This document shows positions 41,451 to 60,722 of a DNA stretch of 64,000 bases, one piece after another. A model generated the notes under the pieces. The model made no database searches and had not been told where the DNA came from. It worked only from the letters and a program-made list of their open reading frames with translations. Positions within the stretch are counted from its first letter, which is position 1, and each line of letters opens with the position of its first letter. Origin of the DNA: an uncultured Ruminococcus sp. (GTDB taxonomy: Bacteria > Bacillota > Clostridia > RUG12999); assembly GCA_902784805.1 (NCBI GenBank), contig CACZWD010000001.1, forward strand, positions 772 to 64,771, given 5' to 3'. Made by a program: the position numbers and the translations under genes.

Positions 41451-41491
41451 ATATCTGTAAGTTTTTAAATAACCGGAGGTTGTCAAGAAGA

Positions 41492-42538: not shown

Positions 42539-42550
42539 GGATGATATGCC

Positions 42551-43459: not shown

Positions 43460-43467
43460 GTTGTTAA

Positions 43468-44565
43468 ATGAAAAGAGTTTTATGTATAGTCGGAGGAATG
43501 AATGCGGGCGGCGCGGAAACATTCCTTATGAAAGTTTACCGCAGACTTGATAAAAATAAATACCAAATGGATTTTGCGGTTGCAAACGATGGCTGTTATG
43601 ATGAAGAAATACGCCTTATGGGCGGAAAAATATTTAAAATAACACCTAAAAGTCAAGGGTTTTTGAAAAATTTTTTGTCGGTGAAAAAACTTGTCAAAAA
43701 CGAGGGGTATAAATATGTTTTGCGTACATCGCAACATTCGCTTTCGGCAATGGAGCTTTTGGCGGCAAGGCTTGGAGGAGCTAAGAAGCTTATTTACAGG
43801 TCAAGTAATTCAAACACAATAGACGGGAGCAAAAAAGGCTTATTATTACATAAATTATGCGGCTTTATGCCGATATTTTTTGCGAATGTGCGTATTGCGC
43901 CTTCAACAGAGGCAGCTGAATTTATGTTTGGAAAAGACTGCGTAAAAAAAGGTAAAGCAACAATTTTAAACAATGGTATTGACATGAGGATTTTTAACTA
44001 TAATGGGCAAAACAGAAACGAATGTCGTGAAGAATTTAAGCTTAAAAATAAGTTTGTTGTAGGTCATATCGGAAGGTTTAGCGCACAAAAAAATCATGAC
44101 TTTTTGCTTGAAATATTTGCTGAAATAAAGAAAAAAAAAGAAGATTCAATCCTTTTAATTGTCGGTGGAGGCGAGCTTGAAGCAGAAATAAAGCAAAAAG
44201 CAAAGGAACTGAATGTTTTTGATAATATAGTTTTTACGGGTGTTCGAAGTGATGTTTCAAAGCTCTTAAGCGCAATGGACGTTTTTGTTTTTCCTTCGTT
44301 TTATGAAGGTATGCCAAACACGGTTATCGAGGCACAGGCAGAAGGACTTCCTTGTATAATATCCGATACAATAACAAAGGAAGCGGATATTACAGGGCTT
44401 GTAAAATATTTGCCACTTGATTTGTCGGCAGAAAAGTGGGCGGACGAAGTTATTGATTGCGTGTCTGCCGAACGCAAAGAAACAAAAGATGATTTTGTAA
44501 AAAATGGATATGATATAGATAGTGTGACAGATAAATTTATACAGTTTGTGTTTGGAGATAAATAA
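43468..44565 (+). CDS. Glycosyltransferase family 4 (GT-B)
   Basis: N-terminal VGGMNAGGAETFL and C-terminal FPSFYEGMPNTVIEAQAEGLPCIISD motifs. Confidence 0.8.
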   Translation: MKRVLCIVGGMNAGGAETFLMKVYRRLDKNKYQMDFAVANDGCYDEEIRLMGGKIFKITPKSQGFLKNFLSVKKLVKNEGYKYVLRTSQHSLSAMELLAARLGGAKKLIYRSSNSNTIDGSKKGLLLHKLCGFMPIFFANVRIAPSTEAAEFMFGKDCVKKGKATILNNGIDMRIFNYNGQNRNECREEFKLKNKFVVGHIGRFSAQKNHDFLLEIFAEIKKKKEDSILLIVGGGELEAEIKQKAKELNVFDNIVFTGVRSDVSKLLSAMDVFVFPSFYEGMPNTVIEAQAEGLPCIISDTITKEADITGLVKYLPLDLSAEKWADEVIDCVSAERKETKDDFVKNGYDIDSVTDKFIQFVFGDK

Positions 44566-45815
44566 TGAAAATAGGAACAAATAAAATACCGAATTATATA
44601 GTAAATGTATTGACAGTTTTTTTATTATTTACATTTACATCACTTAATAAAATCACTTGGGGAAGATACGCTTTTCTCGGAATTACAGCTATTATTTTTG
44701 TGATCTCAGCAAGCACATATTGCGGCGGAGTGAAATTTAGCGTGCAACCGTTTCATATTTTTTTGTTTGCTTTTGCTGTTTATTGCGGTATTTCTTCGTT
44801 TTGGGCCGTAAATCCGGCAATGTCGATATCCGATTTTAAAACAATATGTTCAATACTTATATGCTATTCTGTTATATATGCTCACTATCAAAAAGAAAAT
44901 AGTATTAATGTACTTTTTGATATTATCAAGTATTCAGGATTAGCCGTTGCTTTGTATACTATTTGTTTTTATGGATTAGATGACATGATTATATCGGCAA
45001 GTGATGAAAATTTAAGATTGGGAAATTCTTTTGCAAATGTTAACAATATTGGAGTTGTTATGGCTTTTACAATCATTATGATTTTTAAAAATTTTATTAC
45101 AAAGAGAAATTATAAAGAGCTGCTTTTAATGGCACCTTGTATTGTTGTTATTGCCGCAACACAGAGCAGAAAAGCAATGATAAGTGCAACTTTTGGAATA
45201 TTTTTAATGTTGATTGTGATTAATGAAAAGAATAAAAATTTTTATAAAAGGTTTTTTAAATTCTTTTGTGTTATTGCTATATTTGTTTTTTGTATATATG
45301 CTATTTCAAAGTTTTCAGCGTTTGTTGGCATGTCCGAACGTTTACAAAGTATGCTGGATGCGTTTAACGGAGACAAGGGAGCTGACAGTTCATCACTTAA
45401 ACGTTTGAACATGATACGTTATGGAATAAATAGTTTTAAACAGCATCCGTTTTTTGGGATAGGTATAAAAAACACATATATTATAACCCGAAGATATTGG
45501 GGAGTCAATACATATTTACATAACAATTATGTTGAGCTTTTAGCAGGCGGAGGAATATTTGGTTTCACAATATATTATTCAATATATGTATATCTAATAT
45601 ATAATGTTATAAAGTATAAAAATGTCGACAGAGAAAATTTTGGAGTTTTTACAGTATTATTAATTATTATGCTTGTTCTTGATTACGGCATAGTTACGTA
45701 TTATTCAAAGTTACAATATTTTTATTTTATGATAATGTTTTTACATATTGATTTAGTAAAGAAAAGAGTGGAATGTTTCAGTGAAGATACAAAAAATCCT
45801 CAAAGCGGCATATAA
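44565..45815 (+). CDS. wzy: O-antigen/capsule repeat-unit polymerase (Wzy / O-antigen ligase family)
   Basis: About 12 TM segments with a large loop containing the RxxxxxxxxG-like motif (TQSRKAMISATFG). AT-rich, as usual for wzy. Confidence 0.65.
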   Translation: MKIGTNKIPNYIVNVLTVFLLFTFTSLNKITWGRYAFLGITAIIFVISASTYCGGVKFSVQPFHIFLFAFAVYCGISSFWAVNPAMSISDFKTICSILICYSVIYAHYQKENSINVLFDIIKYSGLAVALYTICFYGLDDMIISASDENLRLGNSFANVNNIGVVMAFTIIMIFKNFITKRNYKELLLMAPCIVVIAATQSRKAMISATFGIFLMLIVINEKNKNFYKRFFKFFCVIAIFVFCIYAISKFSAFVGMSERLQSMLDAFNGDKGADSSSLKRLNMIRYGINSFKQHPFFGIGIKNTYIITRRYWGVNTYLHNNYVELLAGGGIFGFTIYYSIYVYLIYNVIKYKNVDRENFGVFTVLLIIMLVLDYGIVTYYSKLQYFYFMIMFLHIDLVKKRVECFSEDTKNPQSGI

Positions 45816-46698
45816 ATACATATTCAATAAAAATTACAGATTTTTAATAAATTCAGAGTTGCACTTTTACGATAAGATGCCTGATGAAAAATTTTTAAAG
45901 AAAAAGTTTAAAGCTGTTATGGGTAAAGGTCTTGATCTTGAAAACCCAATAACATTTAACGAAAAATTGCAATGGCTTAAGCTTTATGATAGAAAGCCTG
46001 AGTATACTATGATGGCGGATAAGTATGAGGTTAGAAAATATATAGCGAATAGGCTTGGGGAAGAGTACTTAATTCCACTAATTGGCGTGTGGGACAACCC
46101 TGACGATATTGATTTTGATAAGCTGCCTGATAAGTTTGTGCTTAAATGTAATCATAATTCCGGTCTTGGTATGTGTATATGCAAAGACAAATCGAAACTC
46201 AATATAAAAAAGGTTAAAAGAAAATTAAAAAAAGGCTTGAAACAGGATTATTATTTGACGTGTCGCGAATGGCCGTACAAAGAAATTAAGCGTAAAATAA
46301 TTGCGGAAAAATACATGGAGGATAGTACTGGAGAACTTATGGACTATAAATTTATGTGTTTTAATGGAAAAGTTAAATGTATTTTTACCTGTACGGAACG
46401 CTTTGATAATGATGGGCTTAAAGTCACTTTTTTTGATACAAATTGGCGAAAGCTGAATTTCAAACGACATTACCCGACCTCAGAAATAGACATCAGCAAA
46501 CCTGAAAATCTTGATGAAATGATATGTTTTGCGGAAATGCTTTCAAAAGATATTAATTTTTTACGAGTTGATTTTTATAATATTAACGGAAAAATATATT
46601 TTGGGGAATTAACATTTTTTCCTGGTTCGGGTTATGAAGAATTTACTCCCGAAAGTGTTGATGAAGAACTTGGAAATCTTATAAATATAACCGTATGA
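45781..46698 (+). CDS. TupA-like ATP-grasp amidoligase (teichuronopeptide biosynthesis family)
   Basis: …NPITFNEKLQWLKLYDRKP…DKFVLKCNHNSG…IYFGELTFFPGSGYEEF matches the TupA-like ATPgrasp family. The start (GTG at 45781) is uncertain. Confidence 0.65.
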   Translation: MKIQKILKAAYKYIFNKNYRFLINSELHFYDKMPDEKFLKKKFKAVMGKGLDLENPITFNEKLQWLKLYDRKPEYTMMADKYEVRKYIANRLGEEYLIPLIGVWDNPDDIDFDKLPDKFVLKCNHNSGLGMCICKDKSKLNIKKVKRKLKKGLKQDYYLTCREWPYKEIKRKIIAEKYMEDSTGELMDYKFMCFNGKVKCIFTCTERFDNDGLKVTFFDTNWRKLNFKRHYPTSEIDISKPENLDEMICFAEMLSKDINFLRVDFYNINGKIYFGELTFFPGSGYEEFTPESVDEELGNLINITV

Positions 46699-46773
46699 TA
46701 AAAGATTTATTTATTATTGAATTAAGGAGTAATGTCCTTTATTGAAATAAGGATGTTTTAAAGGAAAAGAGAT

Positions 46774-47901
46774 ATGAATATTATTATTGGAGCAGATATA
46801 GTGCCGACAAAAACTAATGACGATTTATTTGAGGTCGGAAATGCCGAAGCTTTAATGGAAAATGAGTTAACACATTTTTTGAATACTTCTGATTACCGTA
46901 TATTTAATCTTGAAACGCCTCTTACGGATACAGAGGCGCCCATATCAAAAAACGGACCGAATTTAATCGCAAGCGCAAAATCTGTGAACGGATATAAAGC
47001 TATTGGCGTAAATCTTTTAACCGTTGCAAATAATCATATTATGGATCAAGGCGAGCAGGGTTTTTTTTCAACACTAAAATTACTTAAAAAAAACGGAATT
47101 GATTATGTCGGCGCAGGAGAAAATGTTAGAACCGCAAGAGAACCGTATGTCTTTGAAATTGACAACATAAAAATTGGCGTTTATGCTTGTGCGGAGCATG
47201 AGTTTTCGATAGCAACAGAAAATATGGCAGGCGCAAATCCATTTGAGCCGTTAGATTCTTTTGACCACATCTGTGAGCTTAAACAGAAATGTGATAGAGT
47301 TATTGTTTTATATCATGGTGGAAAGGAACATTACAGATATCCATCACCTTATTTACAGAAGATATGCCGTAAATTTATTGAAAAGGGTGCTGATATTATA
47401 GTTTGTCAGCATAGTCATTGTGTAGGCTGTGAAGAAAAATACCTGCAAGGCACAATAGTTTACGGGCAGGGAAATTTTATATTCGACGCGCAAGATAATG
47501 AGTTTTGGAAAACAAGCCTTTTAATTTCCGTCAATGAAGAATTTAACATAAAATATATACCGTTAATAAAAAAAGGAAACGGTGTGAGATTTGCAAAAAA
47601 AAATGAAGCAAACAACATTCTTGATGGATTTAAAAAAAGAAGTGAGCAGATAAAACAGGCGGGTTTTTTAGAAAAGAAATATGCCGAGTTCGCCAAAGAA
47701 AATATTTATAATTATCTTTTAAACATATCCGGTATAAGGTATAGTTTTTTTATGAGAGTATTAAATAAAATCAGCAGAGGAAAATTTATTGTTTTTTTTA
47801 TAAAGAGAAAATACAAACAAAACAAGGTTTTAAAAATTATTAATTATATGGATTGTGAATCCCACAGAGAGCTTTTTTTAAAAGGTTTGGAAAGTATGTG
47901 A
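46774..47901 (+). CDS. CapA/PgsA-family protein (PGA_cap, metallophosphatase fold)
   Basis: NLETPLTDTE…GVNLLTVANNHIMDQG…VLYHGGKEH…VCQHSHC are the hallmark blocks of the poly-gamma-glutamate CapA family. Confidence 0.7.
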   Translation: MNIIIGADIVPTKTNDDLFEVGNAEALMENELTHFLNTSDYRIFNLETPLTDTEAPISKNGPNLIASAKSVNGYKAIGVNLLTVANNHIMDQGEQGFFSTLKLLKKNGIDYVGAGENVRTAREPYVFEIDNIKIGVYACAEHEFSIATENMAGANPFEPLDSFDHICELKQKCDRVIVLYHGGKEHYRYPSPYLQKICRKFIEKGADIIVCQHSHCVGCEEKYLQGTIVYGQGNFIFDAQDNEFWKTSLLISVNEEFNIKYIPLIKKGNGVRFAKKNEANNILDGFKKRSEQIKQAGFLEKKYAEFAKENIYNYLLNISGIRYSFFMRVLNKISRGKFIVFFIKRKYKQNKVLKIINYMDCESHRELFLKGLESM

Positions 47902-47964
47902 TATGGGGGAAAGAAACAATTTAAAGTTTTTGATATGAACCCCATTTCAGTAAATGTTGGGTTG

Positions 47965-48032
47965 AATAAAGTTTCGCACACATGTTGTATTTTATATGAA
48001 TATACGTGCGAAACTTTATTTCGTTTTATATT
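47965..48032. terminator. Bidirectional terminator between the two convergent polysaccharide operons
   Basis: Perfect 15-bp inverted repeat AATAAAGTTTCGCAC (47965-47979) and GTGCGAAACTTTATT (48006-48020) followed by TCGTTTTATATTATTA. Confidence 0.6.
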
Positions 48033-48033
48033 A

Positions 48034-49038
48034 TTATGCGTCTTTTTTGATAAGCAGCTTCTTTTTTAAGCAGCCGGATAAAGGCAACTCTATATATTTA
48101 TGTATACAATAAGCAAGAATCATATTTATTGCAAGCAGGGCAATAATAATACATATTGATTGAAAGTTGAATACTTTGATTTTTAAATTATATAGTACGA
48201 GATATGTCACTTTTTGGTGTATTAAATAAAGAGGATATGATATTGCCGATAAAAAAACAAGCGGTTTGTCATATTTAAACTTTATATTTGTTTTCGCGAA
48301 GATAAATATAAGCAGCGCTGAAATTAATACAAATACAGCTTTTGCCGAAACAGGTATAATTAAAGCGAATATAATGGCAATGTTAAAATAAGACAAAAAA
48401 GCTTTTTTGTTTTTTATAATTAACGCGATGGACATACCGATAATAAACTCATGCGCGTGTTCCGCCAAGAATAACACATTGAAAAATGTGTAAAGCCTGC
48501 CGGCGAACACCATTTTACCGAACAATTTATATATTATAACCACAAACAGCCATAACGTATTTATTTTTTCAATATGTTTTATCAGTTTCAGTTTAATCAG
48601 TCCGGCAATTATTAATGAAAAACCGACTTCATAAAGCAACGTCCAATAAACGCCGTCAACACAAGGCGTCATCAAAAATTCCTGCAGCATTGTAAAATTT
48701 ATCAGCGTAGGTATGACACCGATAAAACTTGCTTTATCAAGTAAAACTGTAAAAATTGTGGTGAATATTATCCCAAACCAATATGCGGGATAAAGACGTA
48801 TAGCTCTTTTTAAAAGAAAATTAGAAGCTTTTGTATCGGATTTCATATTATTAATAACAAGATACCCCGTTATCATGAAAAATACAGCCACAGCCCAGCA
48901 GCCCCACCACAAACCTATGTGGTTTTTTTCGTGTTCAAGCCCGATATATGAGTCCCACTATCTGACGGTATAGTGATATAAGGCGATAAACACGGCGCAT
49001 ATACCGCGAATATAATCAAGACCATATATTTTTTTCAT
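48034..49038 (-). pseudogene. Acyltransferase family 3 (O-acyltransferase) gene interrupted by a single in-frame TAG
   Basis: Reading from the ATG at 49038 gives MKKIYGLDYIRGICAVFIALYHYTVR-TAG-WDSYIGLEHEKNHIGLWWGCWAVAVFFMITGYLV…. This is the canonical acyltransferase-3 N-terminus continuing in the same frame into the ORF-track ORF 48034..48912. Only the TAG at 48958-48960 breaks it. Confidence 0.7.
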
Positions 49039-49081
49039 AATGCTTCACAATCCTTTTAAAATATTTTTTGTTTTTTGCCGG

Positions 49082-50155
49082 TTAATATAAATATTTCAAG
49101 AAATTATATTTTTGACTGAGTTTTATTATAATAAATGAAATGACGCCGCAAATTAACAGTGTACTAAAAAATAAAATGGTACATTTATATATTGAATGTA
49201 TATCATAATTTGCAGAAATATATTTGTTTAAAAGAATCATTATAGAACCATGGGAACAATATATAATTGTCGAAGTTTTTCTAAATATGGTATAAATCGG
49301 CTTATATTCAAGCGGTATTTTTAAGCATAAAATAAGTAATGAAGCCGATAACAATGGTAACATCATACAGGTTGTTCCCGATTTCGGCATATAATCTGTC
49401 GTGGTATAAAACAGCAAAAAAATCTCCGCAGCGGTTAAAATAAATAAGAAAGTAAATATAATTAATGCTTTTTTTACGGAGATATTAATACTTTCTTCAT
49501 GCTCTGCTATGATTTTACCTATAACAAAAAATATCAAAGCAAACGGGAAAGATATATAAAACGTTCCCCAATAGTGATTTATAAGATCAAATATTTTATT
49601 TAAGTGTTCTCCTGTCAAAAAATTATAGTAAGTCATAAGAAGACATATAATATAACAGAAAACAGCGATACCGATTGCAAGGCGGTTTTTGCCTTTATCT
49701 GTTTTACAGGCGAAAAACAAAAGTATAGCATCTATGATGCATGCCATTAAAAACCAGGAAGCGGGAAAGCCGTTGCCGAGTATAATATCACGAATAAGAA
49801 TAATAAACGATTTTAAAGACATATTATTTGGAAATCCGAGTTTAAACACCGCTACATAAACACCGTTTAACAAAAACCATACCGAATATAGTATAAACAG
49901 ACGTTTACAGTAATTAAAAACTCTCATGTGCGGCTCGGGACTTTTTTTCATCCCTCTGAATAAAAAATAACTGCTGGTTACAAAGAAAAACGGAACGGCT
50001 ATTCTGCAAATTACAAATATAATAAAAACGTAACCATAGCCATAAACAGAATTTTGGCGCAGAGAAAAATTACCGACCTGACAAGAATGTAACAAAATTA
50101 TAAGAATCGAAAAAACAAATTTTAAAATGTCTATTGATGCGTTTTTACTTTTCAT
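49082..50155 (-). CDS. Acyltransferase family 3 (membrane O-acyltransferase)
   Basis: N-terminal IDILKFVFSILIILLHS and 10 TM segments. Confidence 0.75.
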   Translation of the reverse strand: MKSKNASIDILKFVFSILIILLHSCQVGNFSLRQNSVYGYGYVFIIFVICRIAVPFFFVTSSYFLFRGMKKSPEPHMRVFNYCKRLFILYSVWFLLNGVYVAVFKLGFPNNMSLKSFIILIRDIILGNGFPASWFLMACIIDAILLFFACKTDKGKNRLAIGIAVFCYIICLLMTYYNFLTGEHLNKIFDLINHYWGTFYISFPFALIFFVIGKIIAEHEESINISVKKALIIFTFLFILTAAEIFLLFYTTTDYMPKSGTTCMMLPLLSASLLILCLKIPLEYKPIYTIFRKTSTIIYCSHGSIMILLNKYISANYDIHSIYKCTILFFSTLLICGVISFIIIKLSQKYNFLKYLY

Positions 50156-51210
50156 TTCGTTTTCCTTTCTCCGATAATTACAGGAACGGTATATCTTATT
50201 ATTATTGTCAGCCCATATGATATAATAACCGTAACAAAGGATATTGCGGTAACAACAAGAAAATTATCCGCCTGTGGGAAAGCGGCGTTACAGATATGGC
50301 AAAGCTTTTGAATAATAGGCTTATGAAGTAAAAAAATAGGCATCGTGCTTTTCCCCAAAGCAATAAGCGGTGAAATATTAAGTCGCATTTTTGTAACAAA
50401 AGCTGAAAAAGATGTCAGCATAACAGTTCCGAGCATTGCGTCCATAATATATAAAAAGTAATTTCCGTATTCCGAGCTTGCCATATCGACATTGTTTATT
50501 TGTATATACTTTAAATTTAATTTAAAAGTAAAGAACAAGAAAACAAAAGTAAAAACCGTAAAAAACAATAAATTTACGCCGCTGTAAAATTTAACGTATT
50601 TTCTGGTTATCACTTTAAAAATATATCCGAAAAGTATAAAGGCACATGCCATTGGCGCAACGTTAACACACCACGGATAGCCGATTTTAATGTGCGGAAG
50701 AAAATAGGAAATCATGCTTAAAACAAATGCAAATACCATTATGGTAAAATATTTGTATGGATTTTTGCATTTCAGCGAATTTACAAAACACATAATTATC
50801 TCCGTAAAGCAAACCGCCGCAAACATACACGGCAAAAACCATATTGATGTCAGGGAATCGGCAGCTTTAAAGCCGTACTGACTGCCGTACAAAATATATA
50901 GAAATGATTTAATACTGAAGGAGCCTTGTTTTATGCCGTTTAAAGCGGCATAAAACAAGGACCAGAAGGCGGCGGGGATAATTAATCTTTTTAATTTTCC
51001 GAAAACAAATAGTTTTGTTAAAAAACCTTTGTTTTCGTGAGAAGATAAATTATATGTCAAGCCGTAAACAAAAAAGAATACAGGCATATGAAAAGAGTAT
51101 ATAAACTGTTTAAGGGCATTGTCACAAAGGGGGGCGTGCGCAAATACTACCAAAAAAATAGCAAATGCTTTTAACACATCGACATAATCATATCTTTTCA
51201 TAAATATCAT
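50152..51210 (-). CDS. Acyltransferase family 3 (membrane O-acyltransferase)
   Basis: RYDYVDVLKAFAIFLVVFAHAP N-terminus. Start is ambiguous: TTG at 51216, ATG at 51210 or ATG at 51201. Confidence 0.7.
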   Translation of the reverse strand: MIFMKRYDYVDVLKAFAIFLVVFAHAPLCDNALKQFIYSFHMPVFFFVYGLTYNLSSHENKGFLTKLFVFGKLKRLIIPAAFWSLFYAALNGIKQGSFSIKSFLYILYGSQYGFKAADSLTSIWFLPCMFAAVCFTEIIMCFVNSLKCKNPYKYFTIMVFAFVLSMISYFLPHIKIGYPWCVNVAPMACAFILFGYIFKVITRKYVKFYSGVNLLFFTVFTFVFLFFTFKLNLKYIQINNVDMASSEYGNYFLYIMDAMLGTVMLTSFSAFVTKMRLNISPLIALGKSTMPIFLLHKPIIQKLCHICNAAFPQADNFLVVTAISFVTVIISYGLTIIIRYTVPVIIGERKTK

Positions 51211-52163
51211 CACCAATTTTGCAATAATATATTTGTACTTACTTCATTGAACATTCTTATACGCGCTTCAACCGTACCTCCCGCTATATGCGGCGTTACA
51301 ATAACATTTTTCATATTCTCATTCCACATACCGAAAACCTTATCGGCGTCAACATCCATACCTATACAAAAGCAGTCGTTGTCACGGGCTTTTTTAAAAA
51401 GGTGAGCGTTATCGGTAAGCTCCGACCTTGATACAGATATAAAAACCGCATTGTTCTTCATATTATTTATTCTTGAAGCGGAAATAATGCCTTCCGTTTC
51501 GGGCGTGTACGGTAAATTCAGCGAAATTATATCGGAAGATTTTATAAGCTCGTCAAGTTCCGTAAACACCACTCCGTCATCAGATAAATCGGTATGCTTT
51601 TCAGGATTTCTTGTCCATGAGATTCGTTCCATTCCGAATGCCTTTGCCATTTTAAGTACGGCTCCGGCAGTACCGCCTGCGCCGATAATGCCAATAGTCA
51701 AACCATAAAGGTCATGCGGTTTATAACGCATTTCCTTCTTGTTTTTGCCAAGCGCAGCCGTAATTTTGCCGTCAATGAACTGTTTTTTCAGCGCGATTAT
51801 AAGTCCAAAAATATGTTCTGCCACGGATATTTTATTGGCATTCGGCGCATTTACAACCTTGATAATATTTTTTTTGTCATCGGGAATACTGATATGATCC
51901 GTGCCTATGGATGCGGTTGCTATTATTTTTTTGCAAGGGGGGGTGTTTTTTAACATATTTTCGGTTATCTTTTGCGCAGTGCTTATGATTATAATATCGT
52001 ATTCATCTATAAGCTTTTTGAGTTCATTTCCACAAGGACGTTCTTTACCTTTCGGGTGAAGAATTACTTTAATATTATTTTTTTCCAGAAGCTCCGAAGC
52101 GGATTTAGGGAAATCGTCAAATACCGAATATGCTATCATATCAATTCTCTCCAAAGTAGTCAT
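51210..52163 (-). CDS. D-isomer-specific 2-hydroxyacid dehydrogenase family protein (NAD-binding)
   Basis: GIIGAGGTAGAVLKMAKAFGM Rossmann motif and a catalytic R/E/H framework (VTPHIAGGT). Confidence 0.8.
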   Translation of the reverse strand: MTTLERIDMIAYSVFDDFPKSASELLEKNNIKVILHPKGKERPCGNELKKLIDEYDIIIISTAQKITENMLKNTPPCKKIIATASIGTDHISIPDDKKNIIKVVNAPNANKISVAEHIFGLIIALKKQFIDGKITAALGKNKKEMRYKPHDLYGLTIGIIGAGGTAGAVLKMAKAFGMERISWTRNPEKHTDLSDDGVVFTELDELIKSSDIISLNLPYTPETEGIISASRINNMKNNAVFISVSRSELTDNAHLFKKARDNDCFCIGMDVDADKVFGMWNENMKNVIVTPHIAGGTVEARIRMFNEVSTNILLQNW

Positions 52164-53880
52164 TTAAATATTGTGCCGCAAACGTTCTGTCACAGGCGGC
52201 TTTTTTTTCGGCAGGCATATTTTTGAGTAAATCTATTAAAATATCTGTTGTTACCCTGCTGTCCTTTAAAAATATAGAAATATAGCTCGGTGTGCAGCCG
52301 TAAAGCGAAGAAAGGAAGTAATCCAGACAATAGCCCCACGGATTTGTCTTTATTACATTCGCAAAATACTCAGATATTTCATCATATATCTCTATGGTGC
52401 TGTAACAATTACCTTCAGAATTAAGAACGGGAATAATAAGCTCGGTGCAAAGATTTCCCGCGCCTTTTCCCATACCCGTAATGCTTGCATCAAGCATAAG
52501 ATCATGGTTTAATGGACAGTTCACTGCCACGCAAGCGTTTGCAAACGCCAACTGTCTGTTGTTGTGGGCGTGAAAACCGATTTTCATAGTGCTGCTTACG
52601 TGATGGTCAACCAGATCAAGCATATGAAGAAGAGAAACGCTGTCCATTTGTCCGAAACTGTCAACAACATAAAAAGCTTTTGCTTCCGGTAATTCTTTAT
52701 TACAACAAGCTATCAGCTCTAAAAATTCATCATCGGAATAGCGTATTGAAACCATAGGCTGAATATATAATTCGTAGCCGCGCTGCAATATTTTTTTGGC
52801 ATTTATTATTGCATCGCGCCAATTTTCTTTATGAAAAGCGTATCTTATACCATCAATACCGGAAACGTCGGCAGCTTGCAATTTATCCAAATCAAAGGTG
52901 CCGTAATCTATCATCGCAAGGTATTTAACACCTGTTTTTTTGCCTGATTTAAGTATAGTGTTTTTAATACTTGTTGGATTATCAAAACAGGTATGACCGT
53001 CATCCAAGCCTGTTTTTTCGTTTATATAGCCACATTCTATATATTCAACACCTGAATTTTCAAGACATTCCTTTATTTTAATTGCCCGTTTTAAACCAAA
53101 ATCAAATTTTATTACGATACCACCGTCGCGCAAAGTACAATCGAGAAGCTGAATTTTCCGTGTTTTCTTGGCTGTACGCATAACTCTATCGGCAATATCC
53201 AGGTCATTATCTGTCGTAATTTTAAAATTACTTGTGTGTCCTGTGACAATTTTTATTTTATATCCTGCCTTAAGCATAAGCTGAGTTGTGCCGGTAACGG
53301 CGCTTTTGTCGCTGTTACCGAAACGGTTAAGGGTATCATGTAAAAGCTTTAAATTAAAGCCGGAGGGAGTTTGTCCATTATATAAGCTGTTACGATCAAG
53401 TGTGCCTGTTATAAAATCTTTATCATTGTATGAAATAAACATCGTATCCGTTGTCGGTATTACCGTAAGGGCAAGTCCGGCTTCTTTTGTTGCTTTAATA
53501 CAATCATCAATCATTTGTTCGCTTACAAAAGGACGCACAGAATCGTGGCAAATAAGAATATCGCTGTCATTAAGTCCGGTTCTTTCTATAATATCATCCA
53601 TAATATTTACAAATGAATCAATGCGTTCTTTGCCGCCGGAAACTATGCGAATCCTTTGAAGCTCATTTTTTGAAAAATGCTGCTTAAACAGATTTTCAGC
53701 GTATTCCGTCCACTCCGGATGTACGGCGATATATATAATATCAATGTTTGTATTATCAATGAATTTACGAAGCGTCAGAAGTATAATCGGAACTCCGCCT
53801 ATTGATATGAACTGTTTTGGTATAGAGTGACGTTCTATTCGCTTTCCTGTTCCTCCTGCTAAAATTGCTGCATATATCAT
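52141..53880 (-). CDS. Bifunctional protein: N-terminal IspD/TarI-like cytidylyltransferase fused to a C-terminal HMGL-like (DmpG/pyruvate-carboxyltransferase TIM-barrel) domain
   Basis: N-terminus AAILAGGTGKRIERHSIPKQFISIGGVPII is the IspD-family signature. C-terminal half has LLDCTLRDGG (DRE-TIM) and FHAHNNRQLAFANACVAV (HxH), as in 4-hydroxy-2-oxovalerate aldolase/HMG-CoA lyase-like enzymes. AAAGGGGAAAAAAT RBS. Confidence 0.7.
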   Translation of the reverse strand: MIYAAILAGGTGKRIERHSIPKQFISIGGVPIILLTLRKFIDNTNIDIIYIAVHPEWTEYAENLFKQHFSKNELQRIRIVSGGKERIDSFVNIMDDIIERTGLNDSDILICHDSVRPFVSEQMIDDCIKATKEAGLALTVIPTTDTMFISYNDKDFITGTLDRNSLYNGQTPSGFNLKLLHDTLNRFGNSDKSAVTGTTQLMLKAGYKIKIVTGHTSNFKITTDNDLDIADRVMRTAKKTRKIQLLDCTLRDGGIVIKFDFGLKRAIKIKECLENSGVEYIECGYINEKTGLDDGHTCFDNPTSIKNTILKSGKKTGVKYLAMIDYGTFDLDKLQAADVSGIDGIRYAFHKENWRDAIINAKKILQRGYELYIQPMVSIRYSDDEFLELIACCNKELPEAKAFYVVDSFGQMDSVSLLHMLDLVDHHVSSTMKIGFHAHNNRQLAFANACVAVNCPLNHDLMLDASITGMGKGAGNLCTELIIPVLNSEGNCYSTIEIYDEISEYFANVIKTNPWGYCLDYFLSSLYGCTPSYISIFLKDSRVTTDILIDLLKNMPAEKKAACDRTFAAQYLNDYFGEN

Positions 53881-53945
53881 ATTTTTTCCCCTTTGTAATT
53901 AACTCTTTATATAATACTATATTAATTTTAATAAATTAGCATGTT

Positions 53946-55886
53946 TTATAAATTAAAATGCTCAACTATCCTTTTACAATTATTATTATCTCTGAAATCG
54001 TCCATCTTATATAGCAAAGCATTGCGTTCATCTTTATAATCATCTATATCTTTGTACACTGTGTCAAGAAAATCAAAGAGTTCTGCGTTTGTTTTAATTT
54101 TTTGTCCCGGCATATAATCATAGACATTATCCATTATAAAGCCTCTTTTATATACATCTATATCGTTAATAAAGAAGCCTATTGGTTTGTTCATCTGCAA
54201 GAAATCAAAGCTTACAGACGAATAGTCTGATAACATAGCGTCTGCATACCCTATCATTTCATACAACTGCAAATTAATATCTAAAAGATTATCATCTGTT
54301 AAATATAAAATATTGGATAGCAAAACTCGTTTCATAAAATCTAATGTCTGAAGATGGTGTACTTTAACAATCATTAACATTTTTTTGTTTTTGAGAAATT
54401 CGTTTAGTTCTTGCAATTCATCTTCATTTGATATTGTGTTTATTGAATAGATATTAAGAAACTCACCGTCCGTCCAGTATTTTGCTTGTCTAAAAGTTGG
54501 CATACACAGAATAATTTTTTGATATGTATCCTCACTTATATATTTTGATAATTTTTTCTTTATATCTATAGTTTTATACATCAAATCAAGCCTCGGTCTA
54601 CCTATGACAAGCATTTGTTCATCTTTTGCTCCCATAGCTTTAGAATACAGTTGTTTTGACCATTCTGACGATATACAATGAAAGTTTAAAAAACCGCTTA
54701 AGTCTTTACCAGCACCTTTTAATGGGATTCCATGTGACAAAGTCACAACTGTCTGATCTTTCTTCCATTTTTTCAGCCACCATGGATGCGTAAAAAAGAA
54801 ATATCTGGCTCTTGCAACATAATACCTAAGTCTTATGCTTTCATAAAAATTTGTAGGTGAAATAAATACAACATTTTCCATATTCATTTTCTTGAATCTG
54901 TTTATATTCTGTACCTTCCACACAAATCTGTATTTCTTATTATAGCCATGCTCGATCATGTATTCGAACAATGCTCTGCCATTATCACAAAAGTCACCCT
55001 CGGTTTCAAAAAACAGGGTATTGTTCGTTTTTACAATTTTAGGCATAACGGAAGAAATTATATTCATACTAAATTTTATCGCATAATTCTTTGATTTTGA
55101 AACAAGCTTCTTTAAAAATCCGACAAAGCCAACTTTCATTAGTAACAATCGTAATCTGTTTCTTCTGTACCATTTTTTGTATTTTTGTCTTCCTAATGTA
55201 CCCCCATATTTGCTATAATAATATTTCTGTTTTTTTAGATAAAGGTTTTCGAGACTTCCAAACCATGAGCCATTAAAATGATGTATTGAGACTGTGTTGT
55301 CCGTAAGTGCTATATTTCCGGTTTCATAACTTTTTGGACAAAAATAATCCTTCGGATACATAGTCAGAATACCCTCAATATTTTGATATGTATTATTGAG
55401 TTCTATATTATATTTTTCCTTTGTCATATTTGTTATTGTGATAACGTTGGTTGTATTGTCAAAGGTGCCGTCGGGTTTTACGAAATGTCTGTCATCATAG
55501 TATGATAAAAGATAGCCTACCCATTCGCCGTGGTTTTCCGACCCCATAAGGGCGGTGGGAATATGGGTTTCATCCTCAAAACCCGAAAAAGCGGTACAGC
55601 TTAAAAAGCTGTCGGGACTTTTTATAAGCTCGACATCGGTATCCATATAAAGACCGCCTTCGTTATATAAGGCGTAAAGTCTTACATAGTCCGTTATGAA
55701 CGCCCATTTTTTGTTTTCATATGCTTCCCGTACATATGTATTTGAATTTACATCAAAGTTTTTTTCGTTCCATTCCTTTATCTCATAATCGGGACAATAT
55801 TTTTTCCAGCTTTCTATATATCGTTTGGTTTCCTCCGGAAGAGGATTTCCACCAAACCAGCAATAGTGTATTATTTTTGGTATCAT
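53946..55886 (-). CDS. Fusion of a GT32-like DXD glycosyltransferase domain with a TagB/TagF-like CDP-polyol phosphotransferase domain
   Basis: N-terminal 230 aa: IIHYCWFGGNPLPE…YVRLYALYNEGGLYMDTDVEL (Gly_transf_sug/Caps_synth type). C-terminal about 400 aa has the Glyphos_transf architecture (…VTLSHGIPLKGAGKD…MLSDYSSVSFDFLQMNKPIGFF). Confidence 0.7.
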   Translation of the reverse strand: MIPKIIHYCWFGGNPLPEETKRYIESWKKYCPDYEIKEWNEKNFDVNSNTYVREAYENKKWAFITDYVRLYALYNEGGLYMDTDVELIKSPDSFLSCTAFSGFEDETHIPTALMGSENHGEWVGYLLSYYDDRHFVKPDGTFDNTTNVITITNMTKEKYNIELNNTYQNIEGILTMYPKDYFCPKSYETGNIALTDNTVSIHHFNGSWFGSLENLYLKKQKYYYSKYGGTLGRQKYKKWYRRNRLRLLLMKVGFVGFLKKLVSKSKNYAIKFSMNIISSVMPKIVKTNNTLFFETEGDFCDNGRALFEYMIEHGYNKKYRFVWKVQNINRFKKMNMENVVFISPTNFYESIRLRYYVARARYFFFTHPWWLKKWKKDQTVVTLSHGIPLKGAGKDLSGFLNFHCISSEWSKQLYSKAMGAKDEQMLVIGRPRLDLMYKTIDIKKKLSKYISEDTYQKIILCMPTFRQAKYWTDGEFLNIYSINTISNEDELQELNEFLKNKKMLMIVKVHHLQTLDFMKRVLLSNILYLTDDNLLDINLQLYEMIGYADAMLSDYSSVSFDFLQMNKPIGFFINDIDVYKRGFIMDNVYDYMPGQKIKTNAELFDFLDTVYKDIDDYKDERNALLYKMDDFRDNNNCKRIVEHFNL

Positions 55887-57427
55887 ACCTTAGCACCTTT
55901 CATTAAAAGCTTATTTTTAAGAATCTCACGTTCGTGTTTGTCGAGCATTATGAAGTAATTTATCACGCATGCCCCAATACCCATCAGTGCAATATCCAAA
56001 AGCAGCAGTATCCAACTGTTTATCGGTATCAGCATTTTTATGCCTAAAGCTAATACACTGACTATTGCTACAGAAATAATATTTTTGAGTATCAGAGGGA
56101 AAAAGGTGTGCCATTTGAAGCCGAGACATACGGCTCCATACACCGGCAAAAATGTCAGAGCGCGTATTATACTCATTATTGTGCTTACGCCAACCACTAT
56201 GTACATTTTCATATTCTCATCGGTAGTGTGTGTTAAAAGTATAAATACCAAAAGAGTCGATACACATGCATTCATAAGCAAAAATAGTGAAGACTGCCTT
56301 ACCTTGTTTGCGACGGTAAAAATATTCCACAAGGGTTCAAGCGACAAAGAAAATATGAATGCCCCTGCACCGAGTATCGATAACCGCTGAAGAAGGACGG
56401 CATCCTGCGTAGGCAACCAAAGAGCATAAAATTCCCTGCTGTACACATATAAAAAAGCCACAGGTATGCAGGCAAAAAAACCGAGTAACTTGATCGCAGA
56501 GTTAAGCTGCTGCCTTATATCCTCAAAATCATTTTTGGCATAGCTTATGGTAAGCTGCGGCGCAAATACGCTTGCAATCATTCCGAAAACTGATAAAATC
56601 TGCGTGGACAAGGTTTTGGAAATAGATACCGTTCCCATTGCCGAAACGCCAACAAAGAGGTTTGTTATGAGCAAATCTAATCCTGTTGAGAGAGTTCCGC
56701 TTAATTTTGAAATGCTGTTCCACATACCTGACATGATGAGCGTCTTTATTTTGCCAAGATCAAGATATTGTTTTTTAATTTTTACTGTCGGCAACAATTT
56801 TTTGGTATAATAAAAATTTATTGCAATTACGTACAATCCGCATACTAATGTTGAAATTCCCAGATACCATATATGCGGTTTAAAAAACATAAATGCGAAT
56901 ATAAGTATGACTACCTTTATAGCATTTGATTCAATATTTCTGAGTGAAGCCAGATAAAGCTTGTTTTTTGCAAATGTTGCCACGTTCAAAACATTACCAA
57001 TCAAACTCAATAAAAAGTTTGCAAAAAGCAACGCCCACAAAAGAGTAACATCACCAAGTATGTTTTTTGGCACATTTATAATTTTATCCAGGAATACTAA
57101 AACAAATACAGCCAATATAGTCAGTACTGATGACACAACTGCGTTTGCAGCTATAATAGAGGTAAAGAACCTATTGGTATCTTCGTATTCTTCTCTATGT
57201 ATACTTATGGTGATAAACCGTCCTGCCATTGAGTTTAACGCTGTTGTAATTATTGTAGCGTAGCTTATAAAATTATTTGCAAGCCCTACAAAACCATACG
57301 CCTCACGTCCTATATGCTTAACGATATATGGCGTTAGAAAAAAGCTTATGCAGACATTAATTCCAAAAGCAATTATTTGAGCTGCCATATTTATTGCAAG
57401 CTGCTTGTTTTTGTTCATTTTATCCAT
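55883..57427 (-). CDS. wzx: Oligosaccharide repeat-unit flippase (Wzx, MOP superfamily)
   Basis: 14 predicted TM segments, polysaccharide-biosynthesis-protein family N-terminus. Confidence 0.75.
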   Translation of the reverse strand: MDKMNKNKQLAINMAAQIIAFGINVCISFFLTPYIVKHIGREAYGFVGLANNFISYATIITTALNSMAGRFITISIHREEYEDTNRFFTSIIAANAVVSSVLTILAVFVLVFLDKIINVPKNILGDVTLLWALLFANFLLSLIGNVLNVATFAKNKLYLASLRNIESNAIKVVILIFAFMFFKPHIWYLGISTLVCGLYVIAINFYYTKKLLPTVKIKKQYLDLGKIKTLIMSGMWNSISKLSGTLSTGLDLLITNLFVGVSAMGTVSISKTLSTQILSVFGMIASVFAPQLTISYAKNDFEDIRQQLNSAIKLLGFFACIPVAFLYVYSREFYALWLPTQDAVLLQRLSILGAGAFIFSLSLEPLWNIFTVANKVRQSSLFLLMNACVSTLLVFILLTHTTDENMKMYIVVGVSTIMSIIRALTFLPVYGAVCLGFKWHTFFPLILKNIISVAIVSVLALGIKMLIPINSWILLLLDIALMGIGACVINYFIMLDKHEREILKNKLLMKGAKV

Positions 57428-57455
57428 CTCACAATCGTATTGTCCTTTTTTAATA

Positions 57456-58517
57456 TCAACCTTTTAAAGATGTAATTACAGAAAGTATTTTTTGCAAAAC
57501 AAAAACCTTTTTATCGCAGATTTTTCTGTAAAAAATCCATACTTTCAAGTAATATTTCAATCCACGCAAATTATATACTTTAAATGGAGAACAGAGTGAC
57601 TTTTTAAGCCAGCCTTTTACCGAACAAACAACATCCTTTTCGGTTACCTGCTCATTAAATATATATGCGGCATCTTCAAAAGAAGCAGCTTTTAAAAACT
57701 CATTCATAATAATCTGAGTAAAGATAAAATTTTCTTTTTTACCTAATTTAAAACCTCTTTTTTCGGCATATGCCTTAAAATCGTAACAAAGATTTATAAT
57801 TCTTTTAAATGGTAATTCTTTTATTGAGTTCATAATGGAGGTTTTACGTAAAGGATAATGATACAATATATCTTTAATAACCACTAATTTTTTCTGATAA
57901 AGCGCAACACGCAAGGCAAACGATAAATCCTCGGCAAAAATCACCTTATTATTCGCAAAAATAATACCGTTATTTTTTATAATATTTGCTCTGAAAAATC
58001 TGTTACAAGCGTTCCAGCCCGTCTTGCAATAATTAACCGCTATTTCTTCAATATAATCAAGTTTTTCGTTCGCCTTCTCGGTATAATATTCCAAAGGCTT
58101 AAATTTTGTTGCAAACAGTAAATTTCCGGCTTCGTCCTCTTTATAATAATTGAATACTACAATATCACATTTTTTTTCCTCACATACCTTCACGCAAATT
58201 TCTATTAAATTTAATTCAATATAATCATCGGGGTCATAGAAAAAAATATAATCCCCTTTTACTGCTTTTAATCCTGCGTTGCGGGCATCTGATAATCCGC
58301 CGTTTTTTTTATGTATAACCTCAATTCTGCTGTCAACGTTTTTATAGCTTTCGCATATACTATATGAATTGTCCGTTGAACCGTCATCGACCAATATTAT
58401 CTGAAGATTTTTATAGGTCTGATTTATGGCAGCATCAATACTTCTTTGTATATAATTCTCAACATTGTATATAGGAAGAATTAAACTGACTAAACCGGTA
58501 TTATCCATTTTTTTCAC
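57456..58517 (-). CDS. Glycosyltransferase family 2 (GT-A)
   Basis: SLILPIYNVENYIQRSIDAAINQTYKNLQIILVDDGSTDNS. Confidence 0.85.
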   Translation of the reverse strand: MKKMDNTGLVSLILPIYNVENYIQRSIDAAINQTYKNLQIILVDDGSTDNSYSICESYKNVDSRIEVIHKKNGGLSDARNAGLKAVKGDYIFFYDPDDYIELNLIEICVKVCEEKKCDIVVFNYYKEDEAGNLLFATKFKPLEYYTEKANEKLDYIEEIAVNYCKTGWNACNRFFRANIIKNNGIIFANNKVIFAEDLSFALRVALYQKKLVVIKDILYHYPLRKTSIMNSIKELPFKRIINLCYDFKAYAEKRGFKLGKKENFIFTQIIMNEFLKAASFEDAAYIFNEQVTEKDVVCSVKGWLKKSLCSPFKVYNLRGLKYYLKVWIFYRKICDKKVFVLQKILSVITSLKG

Positions 58518-59484
58518 TTCGCAATCTTTTTTGTTTTTTTAAAAATTCAATCGTTTTTTCGGTCGGGTAAGGAAATATATATGAAATGCAGGCTCTTAAG
58601 ACTTTTTTTACGGGTACACCGCGAAGTATATTAAAAGAAAAGTTTGTTCTGTATACCTTAACCAATTCCTTATATTTTTCCTTTGCACCCTCTTGCTTAC
58701 GGCATTTGCTGTATTCGGTCACAGCGTAATAAAGCCCGCTTGTTAGGCAACTGAATATTAAAAAATTCGGACAATTTTCACTGATATAGTATGATGCTCG
58801 CTGAAAAAAAGATTCGGCACGATCAACCATATTTTTTATAACAATTTTTGTATTCATTATACTACCCGAACGGTTAACATAGTAGTATAATCTATCAGAT
58901 AAACAAACAACACATTTTGTGTGCAGCATTACTTTGTGAATAACAAATGTATCTTCATATAATCTGCCCTTGGGGTAACGTAAGTTGTTAAAAATATTTT
59001 TTATATACAATTTATTCCATGCAACAGTCCAATGTACATTTGGAGGAGGATTAAAAAGAAAATCTCTTCCTGACATTACCGTATCAGATTGTACGCTGCT
59101 ATAATCATATGTGTCATCAATAACTTTAACTACATTACAGACTGCTATCTCCGCATTGTTTTCTTTAAGTGATTTATAAAGCTTTTCATACATATCGGGC
59201 GCGATATAATCATCACTGTCAACAAAACCTATATATTCTCCTGTTGCTTTATCAATTCCCGCATTTCGGGCATCTGACAGACCGCCGTTTTCTTTATGTA
59301 TAACAACAACTCTGTCATCTTTTTCTGCATACTCATCACATATTATTCCGCAATTATCCGGCGAACCGTCATCAACAAGGATAACCTCAATATTTGAATA
59401 TGTTTGCGCTAAAATACTGTCAACACATTTATGTATATAGGGCTCAACATTATACACAGGCACAATGATGCTTATTTTTTCCAT
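58501..59484 (-). CDS. Glycosyltransferase family 2 (GT-A)
   Basis: SIIVPVYNVEPYIHKCVDSILAQTYSNIEVILVDDGSPDN. Confidence 0.85.
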   Translation of the reverse strand: MEKISIIVPVYNVEPYIHKCVDSILAQTYSNIEVILVDDGSPDNCGIICDEYAEKDDRVVVIHKENGGLSDARNAGIDKATGEYIGFVDSDDYIAPDMYEKLYKSLKENNAEIAVCNVVKVIDDTYDYSSVQSDTVMSGRDFLFNPPPNVHWTVAWNKLYIKNIFNNLRYPKGRLYEDTFVIHKVMLHTKCVVCLSDRLYYYVNRSGSIMNTKIVIKNMVDRAESFFQRASYYISENCPNFLIFSCLTSGLYYAVTEYSKCRKQEGAKEKYKELVKVYRTNFSFNILRGVPVKKVLRACISYIFPYPTEKTIEFLKKQKRLRSEKNG

Positions 59485-59504
59485 AGAAATTCCATCCTTT
59501 AAGT

Positions 59505-60455: not shown

Positions 60456-60722
60456 GGATAAGCAAGTCCCCCTTCTGTAAAATGAAAAAGCCCGGAGTTC
60501 TGTTTTTTTAATTATAAAACGGCTAAAATTTTTGTGTAAAAATAACAAATTATTAAAACTAACCGGCTGTATAATTTACATAATCTATTTTATTTTACCA
60601 TACTTTTAGAAATAAAGCAATAGTTTTTTTAAAAAATATGCAATTTCAGAACGAACTATACTAAAAAAATTAAAACAGAATAAAAATATACGAGATAAGG
60701 TGCTTTTTCAGCAGAAAAAATA

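Follow-up and report, generated by a model that had tools for sequence, protein, structure and literature searches.

How should one read a gene that joins a cytidylyltransferase of the kind used to activate ribitol phosphate to a domain resembling an aldolase, and what might its product make? The gene in question lies at 52141-53880 on the minus strand of a 64,000-nucleotide stretch of DNA from an uncultured Ruminococcus sp. (GenBank assembly GCA_902784805.1, contig CACZWD010000001.1, positions 772 to 64,771), which we will call the window. Phosphodiester-linked polyols such as glycerol phosphate and ribitol phosphate shape the charge of bacterial surfaces, their recognition by phages and antibodies, and their sensing by innate immunity; to our knowledge, the set of such precursors is very small. 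The reading that we favor, at a rough probability of 45%, is that the fusion belongs to a cassette that makes a non-canonical hydroxy-acid phosphate activated with cytidine diphosphate (CDP), and that attaches it through a phosphodiester, probably in O-acylated form, to a surface polysaccharide made by the Wzx/Wzy route. The outline of this pathway comes from an initial annotation of the locus, and at the same odds it is the best explanation available, now with independent support from genomic context for a chemistry that we infer.

The fusion itself is real. As the initial annotation had supposed, both domains sit in one polypeptide, a single 579-aa frame with no stop or frameshift, and both Pfam profiles score above their cutoffs. 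Residues 1-236 (53173-53880, minus strand) form a TarI/IspD-type cytidylyltransferase domain (PF01128 at residues 3-235; E 2e-42, 145.9 bits against a cutoff of 27), and residues 237-579 together with the stop codon (52141-53172, minus strand) form a DRE-TIM/HMGL-like, that is, aldolase-like, domain (PF00682; E 6.5e-19, 68.8 bits against a cutoff of 29). The motifs AAILAGGTGKR, LLDCTLRDGG, and FHAHNNRQLAFANA can be read in the translation. More than 120 cluster representatives, 63-75% identical, match it over the full length with both domains colinear. Their sources are metagenome-assembled genomes (MAGs) of animal guts assigned to the Oscillospiraceae, Lachnospiraceae, Prevotella, Paludibacteraceae, Bacteroidaceae, and Treponema, so that the fusion spans gut and rumen members of the Bacillota, Bacteroidota, and Spirochaetota; the identical protein is also found on four independent contigs. 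It is neither a product of chance nor an assembly artefact. Across 121 fusions, the mean column identity is 0.76 in each domain, and this equal conservation argues that both are under selection.

The N-terminal domain behaves as a cytidylyltransferase in every family-level comparison, whether by profile, by catalytic and substrate motifs, or by fold. Its PDB sequence matches are TarI structures (3f1c, 4jis, 6xhp, and 2vsh; E ~1e-42 to 1e-45), with 32-37% identity to TarI. An AlphaFold2 model of the fusion has a mean predicted local distance difference test score of 84, and in Foldseek searches, this domain gave target template modeling (TM) scores of 0.88-0.94 against TarI of Staphylococcus aureus and Streptococcus pneumoniae, including 0.90-0.94 against 6xhq and 2vsh. 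The top 50 PDB hits were TarI/IspD-family structures only and added nothing to the sequence search. The segments AGGTGKR, PKQF, HDSVRPF, TDT, DRNSLYNGQTP, and NFKITTD are all kept and are invariant across 42-121 fusions.

One might therefore propose that the fusion simply supplies CDP-ribitol or another ordinary CDP-alditol, with the DRE-TIM domain and the neighboring dehydrogenase either providing a pentitol or pentulose phosphate by an unrecognised route or serving as accessory, non-catalytic parts. The domain scores above the NCBIfam cutoff for the ribitol-5-phosphate cytidylyltransferase subfamily (NF001183; 220.2 bits against 166), its model superposes on TarI with a target TM score of ~0.9, and it conserves the HDxxRP, DT, R163, QTP, and K220 positions of the family that acts on ribitol phosphate and methylerythritol phosphate (MEP). 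NCBI protein names also say ribitol-5-phosphate cytidylyltransferase. We consider this proposal unlikely, however, on several grounds. The [ST]DACK and GExxN[IL]K motifs of TarI proper are missing from the module enzymes, which carry TGTTQ (residues 196-200; 53280-53294, minus strand) and GHTSNFK (residues 214-220; 53226-53246, minus strand) in their place. Both replacements are invariant among the fusions and are shared by the one unfused enzyme described below. No TarJ- or Bcs1-type reductase is found in the locus, and no route is known by which a DRE-TIM enzyme and a 2-hydroxyacid dehydrogenase would together yield a pentitol phosphate. The DRE-TIM domain, for its part, retains every metal and catalytic-core residue and is as well conserved as the transferase domain.

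The two altered motifs may be informative in themselves. They deprive the module cytidylyltransferase, in its fused and its split form alike, of two acidic residues conserved in TarI (D to G and E to H), a loss that would fit a substrate bearing an additional carboxylate. TGTTQ and GHTSNFK could also be used together as a specificity signature.

Comparison with the established systems makes the difference plain. TarI/TarJ, Bcs1, and AbpA/AbpB (the last for CDP-arabinitol) resemble the cassette in pairing an IspD-fold cytidylyltransferase with a dedicated oxidoreductase, fused to it in Bcs1, and in providing a CDP-activated alcohol phosphate for the TagF-like or LicD enzymes of teichoic-acid-like polymers. 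Unlike TarIJ and Bcs1, the fusion partner here is a DRE-TIM metallolyase domain rather than an SDR or MDR reductase, the reductase is a D-2-hydroxyacid dehydrogenase, and the [ST]DACK and GE motifs of TarI are altered. D-2-hydroxyacid dehydrogenases normally act on 2-oxo carboxylates. Within the annotated polysaccharide locus (41480-60548) there is no TagD, TarJ, SDR reductase, or other CDP-alcohol pathway; where one would look for a ribulose-5-phosphate reductase, be it the MDR enzyme TarJ or an SDR, the 2-hydroxyacid dehydrogenase is found instead.

What, then, is the C-terminal domain? Its best PDB match is 3dxi (E 2e-27), a "putative aldolase" from structural genomics whose function is unassigned, followed by the DmpG-type aldolases 1nvm, 8ih7, and 4lrs (E 1e-8 to 1e-12); acyl-CoA-dependent synthases (homocitrate, citramalate, and isopropylmalate synthases) match much more weakly, at less than 48 bits. 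Residues 238-492 come nearest to the NCBIfam models of DmpG-type 4-hydroxy-2-oxovalerate aldolases without reaching their equivalog scores (TIGR03217, 85.1 bits against 286; NF006049, 89.8 against 229). The metal ligands, whose absence had been named as a sign of an inactive domain, are present: D252 and H437-x-H439, along with the DRE arginine R251, are at least 99% conserved among the 121 fusions and 177 subfamily members. The latter set shows little or no variation at D247, R251, D252, E282, R346, D407, H437, H439, and D464. A profile score above the cutoff, the Asp plus His-x-His site, and the (D)RE arginine together place the domain in the DRE-TIM/HMGL-like superfamily.

DmpG and BphI, the class II pyruvate aldolases, are the nearest characterised relatives, sharing the TIM barrel, the Asp and His-x-His metal site, and the LRDG arginine. 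The catalytic His21 of DmpG (RDGSH) is not conserved, being Ile in the fusion (RDGGI) and Cys or Tyr in other subfamily members, and the hydrophobic aldehyde pocket of DmpG, LLLPGIG, reads AMIDYGT here. The locus contains no acylating acetaldehyde dehydrogenase, DmpF, to act as a partner, and the setting is glycan biosynthesis rather than aromatic catabolism. Judged by its residues, then, the domain is a DRE-TIM metalloenzyme, because the metal site and arginine are retained, and not a bona fide DmpG, because His21 is replaced, the model cutoffs are missed, and DmpF is lacking. Of the earlier designation as an HMGL/DmpG-type aldolase, the first half stands and the second does not; the word "aldolase" should be taken as a putative, family-level label.

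The gene 3' of the fusion was described as a D-2-hydroxyacid dehydrogenase, correctly so: it carries PF02826 (E 4.5e-37, 127.6 bits) and PF00389 (E 5.3e-20, 71.9 bits), a GxGxxG motif, and the catalytic Arg and His of the family. As listed, its open reading frame (51210-52163, minus strand) begins at an ATG at 52163, inside the fusion gene, and overlaps the 3' end of that gene. A second ATG at 52139 directly follows the fusion stop (TGATATG) and yields the 309-aa protein of the public annotation of the same contig. This is probably the true start, and its position against the stop codon suggests translational coupling. The catalytic Arg (VSRSE), the catalytic His (TPHIAGGT), and the segment GAGGTAG are invariant among 15 module orthologues. 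Archaeal glyoxylate reductases and a phosphoglycerate dehydrogenase (PGDH) are its best PDB relatives (E 1e-31 to 1e-34). It nonetheless fits none of the PGDH, glyoxylate reductase, PdxB, or GhrB equivalog models, all of which it misses by far (for PGDH, 151.7 bits against 454; for glyoxylate reductase, 140.7 against 455). Its cofactor loop, SWTRNPE, has no Asp, like that of the NADPH-accepting archaeal glyoxylate reductases (YSRTRK) and unlike that of the PGDH 1wwk (LYDPYP).

The affinity to PGDH invites another explanation, in which the dehydrogenase would work oxidatively in the manner of SerA or PdxB, oxidising a phosphorylated hydroxy acid such as 3-phosphoglycerate to the corresponding phosphorylated 2-oxo acid. 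Aldol or Claisen chemistry in the DRE-TIM domain would then extend this acid into a branched, MEP-like hydroxy-acid phosphate for activation by the IspD domain. PGDHs are indeed among the best dehydrogenase matches (TIGR01327, 151.7 bits; 1wwk, E 2e-34), and an invariant Arg42-Pro43 in the substrate domain could hold a phosphate. The DRE-TIM superfamily includes Claisen enzymes that act on 2-oxo acids, represented here by the weak synthase matches given above, and the native substrate of IspD is a branched polyol phosphate. Yet the cofactor loop is without the Asp that typifies NAD+-dependent PGDHs and resembles that of NADPH-accepting reductases, the similarity to DmpG-type aldolases (85-90 bits) is far above that to the acyl-CoA-dependent synthases, and the KdsC/KdsB surroundings of the paralogues, to which we come below, indicate linear ulosonates. 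We regard the oxidative route as improbable.

Genomic context carries the argument further. We compared 14 distinct loci from the three phyla (L001, L003, L005, L007 to L016, and L019). In all 14, the dehydrogenase lies 3' of the fusion, immediately or one gene away, an outcome in favor of the initial annotation, which had asked whether the fusion always keeps company with a 2-hydroxyacid dehydrogenase. A TagF-like or LicD phosphotransferase is present in 11 of the 14 loci as well as in the window, and it stands immediately 5' of the fusion in eight. The neighboring TagF-like consumer that had been predicted is thus found in the window, while LicD also occurs in this capacity elsewhere. Acyl_transf_3 genes occur within a few genes of the fusion-dehydrogenase pair in nine of the 14 loci and in the window, so that the enzyme trio first envisaged, right as to the fusion and the dehydrogenase, has to be widened by one or two acyltransferases.

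Two of the acyltransferase genes of the window are associated with the cassette: AT3a (50152-51216, minus strand; PF01757, E 1.7e-25) and AT3b (49082-50155, minus strand; PF01757, E 1.9e-20). Homologues of AT3a (37-39% identity) lie one to three genes from the pair in L008, L010, and L013, and a homologue of AT3b (48% identity) follows right behind the dehydrogenase in L015. In L019 the cassette is split into an IspD protein (242 aa), an HMGL-like protein (339 aa, 57% identical), the dehydrogenase, two AT3 proteins, and LicD, in that sequence, and the unfused genes keep the order of the fused cassette. Because the dehydrogenase, the phosphotransferase, the AT3 genes, and the gene order recur across loci, this split version included, we conclude that cytidylyltransferase, aldolase-like enzyme, dehydrogenase, acyltransferase(s), and phosphotransferase form a mobile cassette. 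Its occurrences in animal-gut Bacillota, Bacteroidota, and Spirochaetota share 60-75% protein identity. The recurrence of paired AT3 genes near the cassette in other phyla (L019, L010, and L013) points to O-acylation of the substituent, perhaps at two positions.

Three loci bear directly on the CDP-alditol proposal discussed above. A separate canonical IspD+SDR pair is present in addition to the cassette in L003 (14822-16536) and L010 (14924-16608), as is a separate TagD+TagF pair in L001 (15830-17423). Such separate pairs indicate that the cassette is not simply the CDP-ribitol or CDP-glycerol supply of its locus. The same glycan may bear two different phosphodiester substituents in these three cases.

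We also considered an ATP-grasp ligase, which could amidate a carboxylate, as a further part of the cassette, on account of a TupA-like protein encoded in the window and also in L019, and of two ATPgrasp_ST proteins in L003. This was rejected, there being no homologue in the remaining loci. A scan of genome contigs with one protein returned 12 close MAG loci only, and none from a cultured organism whose glycan structure is known.

A clue to what the aldolase-like domain may make comes from its paralogues. An exhaustive search of representatives placed ~3,200 clusters (at 50% identity) in the 3dxi-like subfamily, 487 of them at E < 1e-30. Members are either standalone (~340 aa) or ~530 aa long with a C-terminal domain lacking an assignment, and fusions to a CTP_transf_3 cytidylyltransferase (at either end), LicD, an HpcH/HpaI aldolase, or a GT2 glycosyltransferase also occur. 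A three-domain form of ~770 aa (HMGL-like domain, middle domain, and KdsB/KpsU-like synthetase of the type that forms sugars activated with cytidine monophosphate, CMP) gave more than 6,000 matches at E < 1e-20, with Aliarcobacter butzleri, an Arcobacter species, Priestia megaterium, and many metagenomes among its hosts. Its C-terminal domain (P0170) resembles the capsule CMP-Kdo synthetase KpsU (1gq9, E 2.5e-34), whereas the middle domain of the ~530- and ~770-aa paralogues has a marginal MptE-like match below the cutoff (E 0.0095). The ~770-aa proteins carry the annotation "CMP-Kdo synthetase" only. Paralogues with 35-45% identity to the aldolase domain carry fused synthetases of the CMP-ulosonate type, CTP_transf_3 in general and a KpsU/KdsB-like domain in P0170.

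Their neighborhoods (L017, 9001-14593; L018, 9001-11924; L021, 1956-5125; L020, 356-4417) tell a similar story. In four loci, the gene immediately 3' of the paralogue encodes a phosphatase. L017 has an NT5C protein in this place and L018 a HAD hydrolase, and the enzyme of L021 and L022 belongs to the KdsC family (TIGR01670, 158.9 bits; cutoff, 107). L017 and L021 also carry polysialyltransferase-like genes near the paralogue, and the proteins annotated in the paralogue loci include none with a NeuB- or KdsA-type Pfam domain. Synthetase fusions, adjacent phosphatases, and the lack of a NeuB or KdsA domain point to a phosphorylated ulosonate as the product of the subfamily. The simplest reading of this context is that the subfamily supplies a 3-deoxy-2-ulosonate phosphate, the role that KdsA or NeuB has elsewhere, and would do so by adding a pyruvate-type enolate to a sugar phosphate in an aldol reaction. 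The arrangement parallels the pathways to Kdo, Kdn, and sialic acid, in which a 3-deoxy-2-oxo acid phosphate is likewise built before activation with cytidine triphosphate (CTP). Here the paralogues fill the synthase position of KdsA or NeuB near a KdsC-family phosphatase and a KdsB/NeuA-type synthetase. Of the carbon-carbon bond formation, reduction, and CTP activation first suggested for the window, it is the step through a phosphorylated 2-oxo acid that gains support from this context; the chemistry as such keeps its conditional standing.

The same neighborhoods bear on a further explanation, that the DRE-TIM domain is a lyase or decarboxylase and cuts some common metabolite down to a small 2-oxo acid. 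Once reduced and phosphorylated to a glycerate-, lactate-, or comparable phosphate, this acid would be CDP-activated in a manner resembling F420 biosynthesis. There, CofC/FbiD uses nucleotide-activated 2-phospholactate, phosphoenolpyruvate (PEP), or 3-phosphoglycerate. The superfamily does include HMG-CoA lyase and the oxaloacetate decarboxylase/carboxyltransferase domains, the base His21 that serves DmpG in the synthase direction is missing, and some clostridial lipoteichoic acids contain glycerate phosphate units. On the other hand, no kinase for a small hydroxy acid is found in the cassette, and the paralogue surroundings, with their KdsC-family phosphatase, KdsB-like synthetase, sialyltransferase-like genes, and absence of a NeuB/KdsA-type Pfam domain, favor the building of a ulosonate phosphate. 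We think a trimming role very unlikely.

The favored pathway, to a CDP-activated hydroxy-acid phosphate, would run as follows. The divalent metal of the DRE-TIM domain would bind a 2-oxo acid (pyruvate, or an enolate derived from oxaloacetate) and condense it with a phosphorylated aldehyde, perhaps glyceraldehyde-3-phosphate, erythrose-4-phosphate, or ribose- or arabinose-5-phosphate. This would yield a 3-deoxy-2-ulosonate phosphate, in other words a 4-hydroxy-2-oxo acid phosphorylated at the omega position. The D-2-hydroxyacid dehydrogenase would next use NAD(P)H to reduce the 2-oxo group, giving a 3-deoxy-aldonate phosphate whose terminal phosphate, still in place, the TarI-like domain would join to the CMP moiety of CTP. 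The TagF-like domain would move the phospho-hydroxy-acid onto a sugar that the glycosyltransferase domain fused to it had added, and the AT3 enzymes would acylate the product. The second and third steps could be reversed; in the synthesis of CDP-arabinitol and CDP-glucitol, cytidylyl transfer precedes reduction.

The window cassette departs from the paralogue operons in several respects. It lacks the phosphatase and gains a reductase for 2-oxo acids, the synthetase that forms a CMP glycoside is replaced by one of the IspD type, which needs a phosphate ester, and the sialyltransferase-like gene gives way to a phosphotransferase. These differences fit a succession of oxo-acid phosphate, hydroxy-acid phosphate, CDP-diester, and phosphodiester-linked substituent. 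The Kdo, Kdn, and sialic acid pathways differ from the cassette in the same respects: the window has no phosphatase with its cassette, its IspD-type synthetase would use the phosphate to form a CDP diester, where theirs forms a CMP glycoside, and it adds a 2-oxo reductase and uses a phosphotransferase. No phosphatase adjoins the cassette in the IspD-linked loci (a single weak HAD-like match lies ~9.5 kb upstream in L007), which suggests that the phosphate is kept for CDP activation.

Precedents for the individual steps can be found in phosphonate biosynthesis. RhiG of the rhizocticin pathway is an HMGL-like aldolase that acts downstream of phosphonoacetaldehyde formation, VlpB is an enzyme of the 2-Hacid_dh family that reduces phosphonopyruvate, and phosphonate decorations are CMP-activated by cytidylyltransferases (PMC8942020). 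RhiG and VlpB thereby offer enzymatic precedents for the proposed aldolase and reductase steps: the former, likened here by its published description, would share with the cassette an HMGL-like aldolase in a pathway with an anionic, phosphorus-bearing aldehyde, and the latter a 2-Hacid_dh enzyme working on a phosphorus-bearing 2-oxo acid. HMGL-like, 2-Hacid_dh, and cytidylyltransferase genes co-occur in such pathways, and we therefore considered a phosphonate product, but rejected it since the annotated locus has neither a PEP mutase nor a phosphonopyruvate decarboxylase. Unlike the products of the RhiG and VlpB pathways, that of the window would be a phosphate ester.

Several observations weigh against this pathway and should be kept in mind. 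The replacement of His21 by Ile, Cys, or Tyr leaves even the reaction class of the aldolase-like domain uncertain. The IspD-linked clade departs from the rest of its subfamily at N257 (I, V, or L) and R459 (an invariant H), and these differences from the KdsB-linked paralogues mean that its substrate may differ; it may take another aldehyde or act on a CDP-linked intermediate. We found no characterised member of the subfamily, whose nearest structure, 3dxi, is itself unannotated, and open-access full text yielded no functional characterisation of the fusion or of the 3dxi family and no link of either to glycan biosynthesis. The cytidylyltransferase half, as seen above, exceeds the NF001183 cutoff for the ribitol-5-phosphate subfamily. 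Finally, we know of no description of a polysaccharide with a phosphodiester-linked 3-deoxy-aldonic acid.

The surroundings in the window are those of a glycan locus. The island at 41480-60548 is a Wzx/Wzy-type polysaccharide locus, with a Wzx-type flippase (55883-57427, minus strand; PF01943, E 5.6e-10), a Wzy_C gene (44565-45815), and two GT1 and two GT2 glycosyltransferases. Its GC content (42000-60600) is 0.30-0.36 against 0.40-0.45 in the flanks, which fits horizontal acquisition or a hypervariable replacement island. The housekeeping genes that flank it encode, at one end, a Na+/alanine symporter and, at the other, small AzlC/AzlD-like membrane proteins together with RecN and ArgR.

The presumed consumer of the CDP-activated product is encoded by one gene at 53946-55886 (minus strand), which combines a Gly_transf_sug domain (~55197-55886; PF04488, a DXD glycosyltransferase domain, E 3.4e-16) with a TagF-like phosphotransferase domain (~53961-55052; PF04464, Glyphos_transf, at residues 279-642, E 1.2e-43, 149.9 bits against a cutoff of 22.1). 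Similarity to TagF (3l7i), Cps3D (8qoy), and TarL (8va1), among its few PDB matches, is weak. The multi-domain capsule polymerases Cps3D and Bcs3 also fuse a glycosyltransferase to a TagF-like domain; unlike them, this protein shows only that weak similarity (E ~1e-8) and lies in a Wzx/Wzy-type rather than an ABC-transporter-type locus. Given that type of locus, it is more likely that the enzyme adds a side chain of a sugar plus the phospho-substituent than that it polymerises a backbone.

Three Acyl_transf_3 genes stand in tandem 3' of the dehydrogenase (48034-51216), and it is uncertain whether the third (48034-48912, minus strand; PF01757, E 2.2e-18) belongs to the cassette. The locus also encodes glucuronyl C5-epimerase-like, TupA-like ATP-grasp (a teichuronopeptide-type ligase), PGA_cap metallophosphatase-like, and DUF6625 proteins, the four genes together occupying 42551-43459, 45781-46698, 46774-47901, and 59505-60548. 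These hint that the same glycan may undergo uronic-acid epimerisation and amino-acid amidation.

What would the cassette mean for the biology of these organisms? If a carboxyl-bearing phospho-hydroxy-acid is installed, gut-commensal glycans would gain a new building block, which would also be a new determinant of their charge and antigenicity. A large unannotated family of aldolase-like proteins, the ~770-aa "CMP-Kdo synthetase" proteins included, would gain a function as well. A bolder extension, which we hold to be doubtful at present, is that the 3dxi-like subfamily constitutes a third, hitherto unrecognised class of 3-deoxy-2-ulosonate-phosphate synthase besides KdsA and NeuB, with the product here reduced, CDP-activated, and grafted by LicD or TagF onto the surface glycans of many gut and rumen bacteria in three phyla. 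It would amount to a carboxylated "teichoic-like" unit, delivered, for example, as CDP-3-deoxyhexonate (from glyceraldehyde-3-phosphate) or CDP-3-deoxyoctonate (from ribose-5-phosphate). In public databases, meanwhile, automatic annotation mislabels the fusion as a plain "D-ribitol-5-phosphate cytidylyltransferase".

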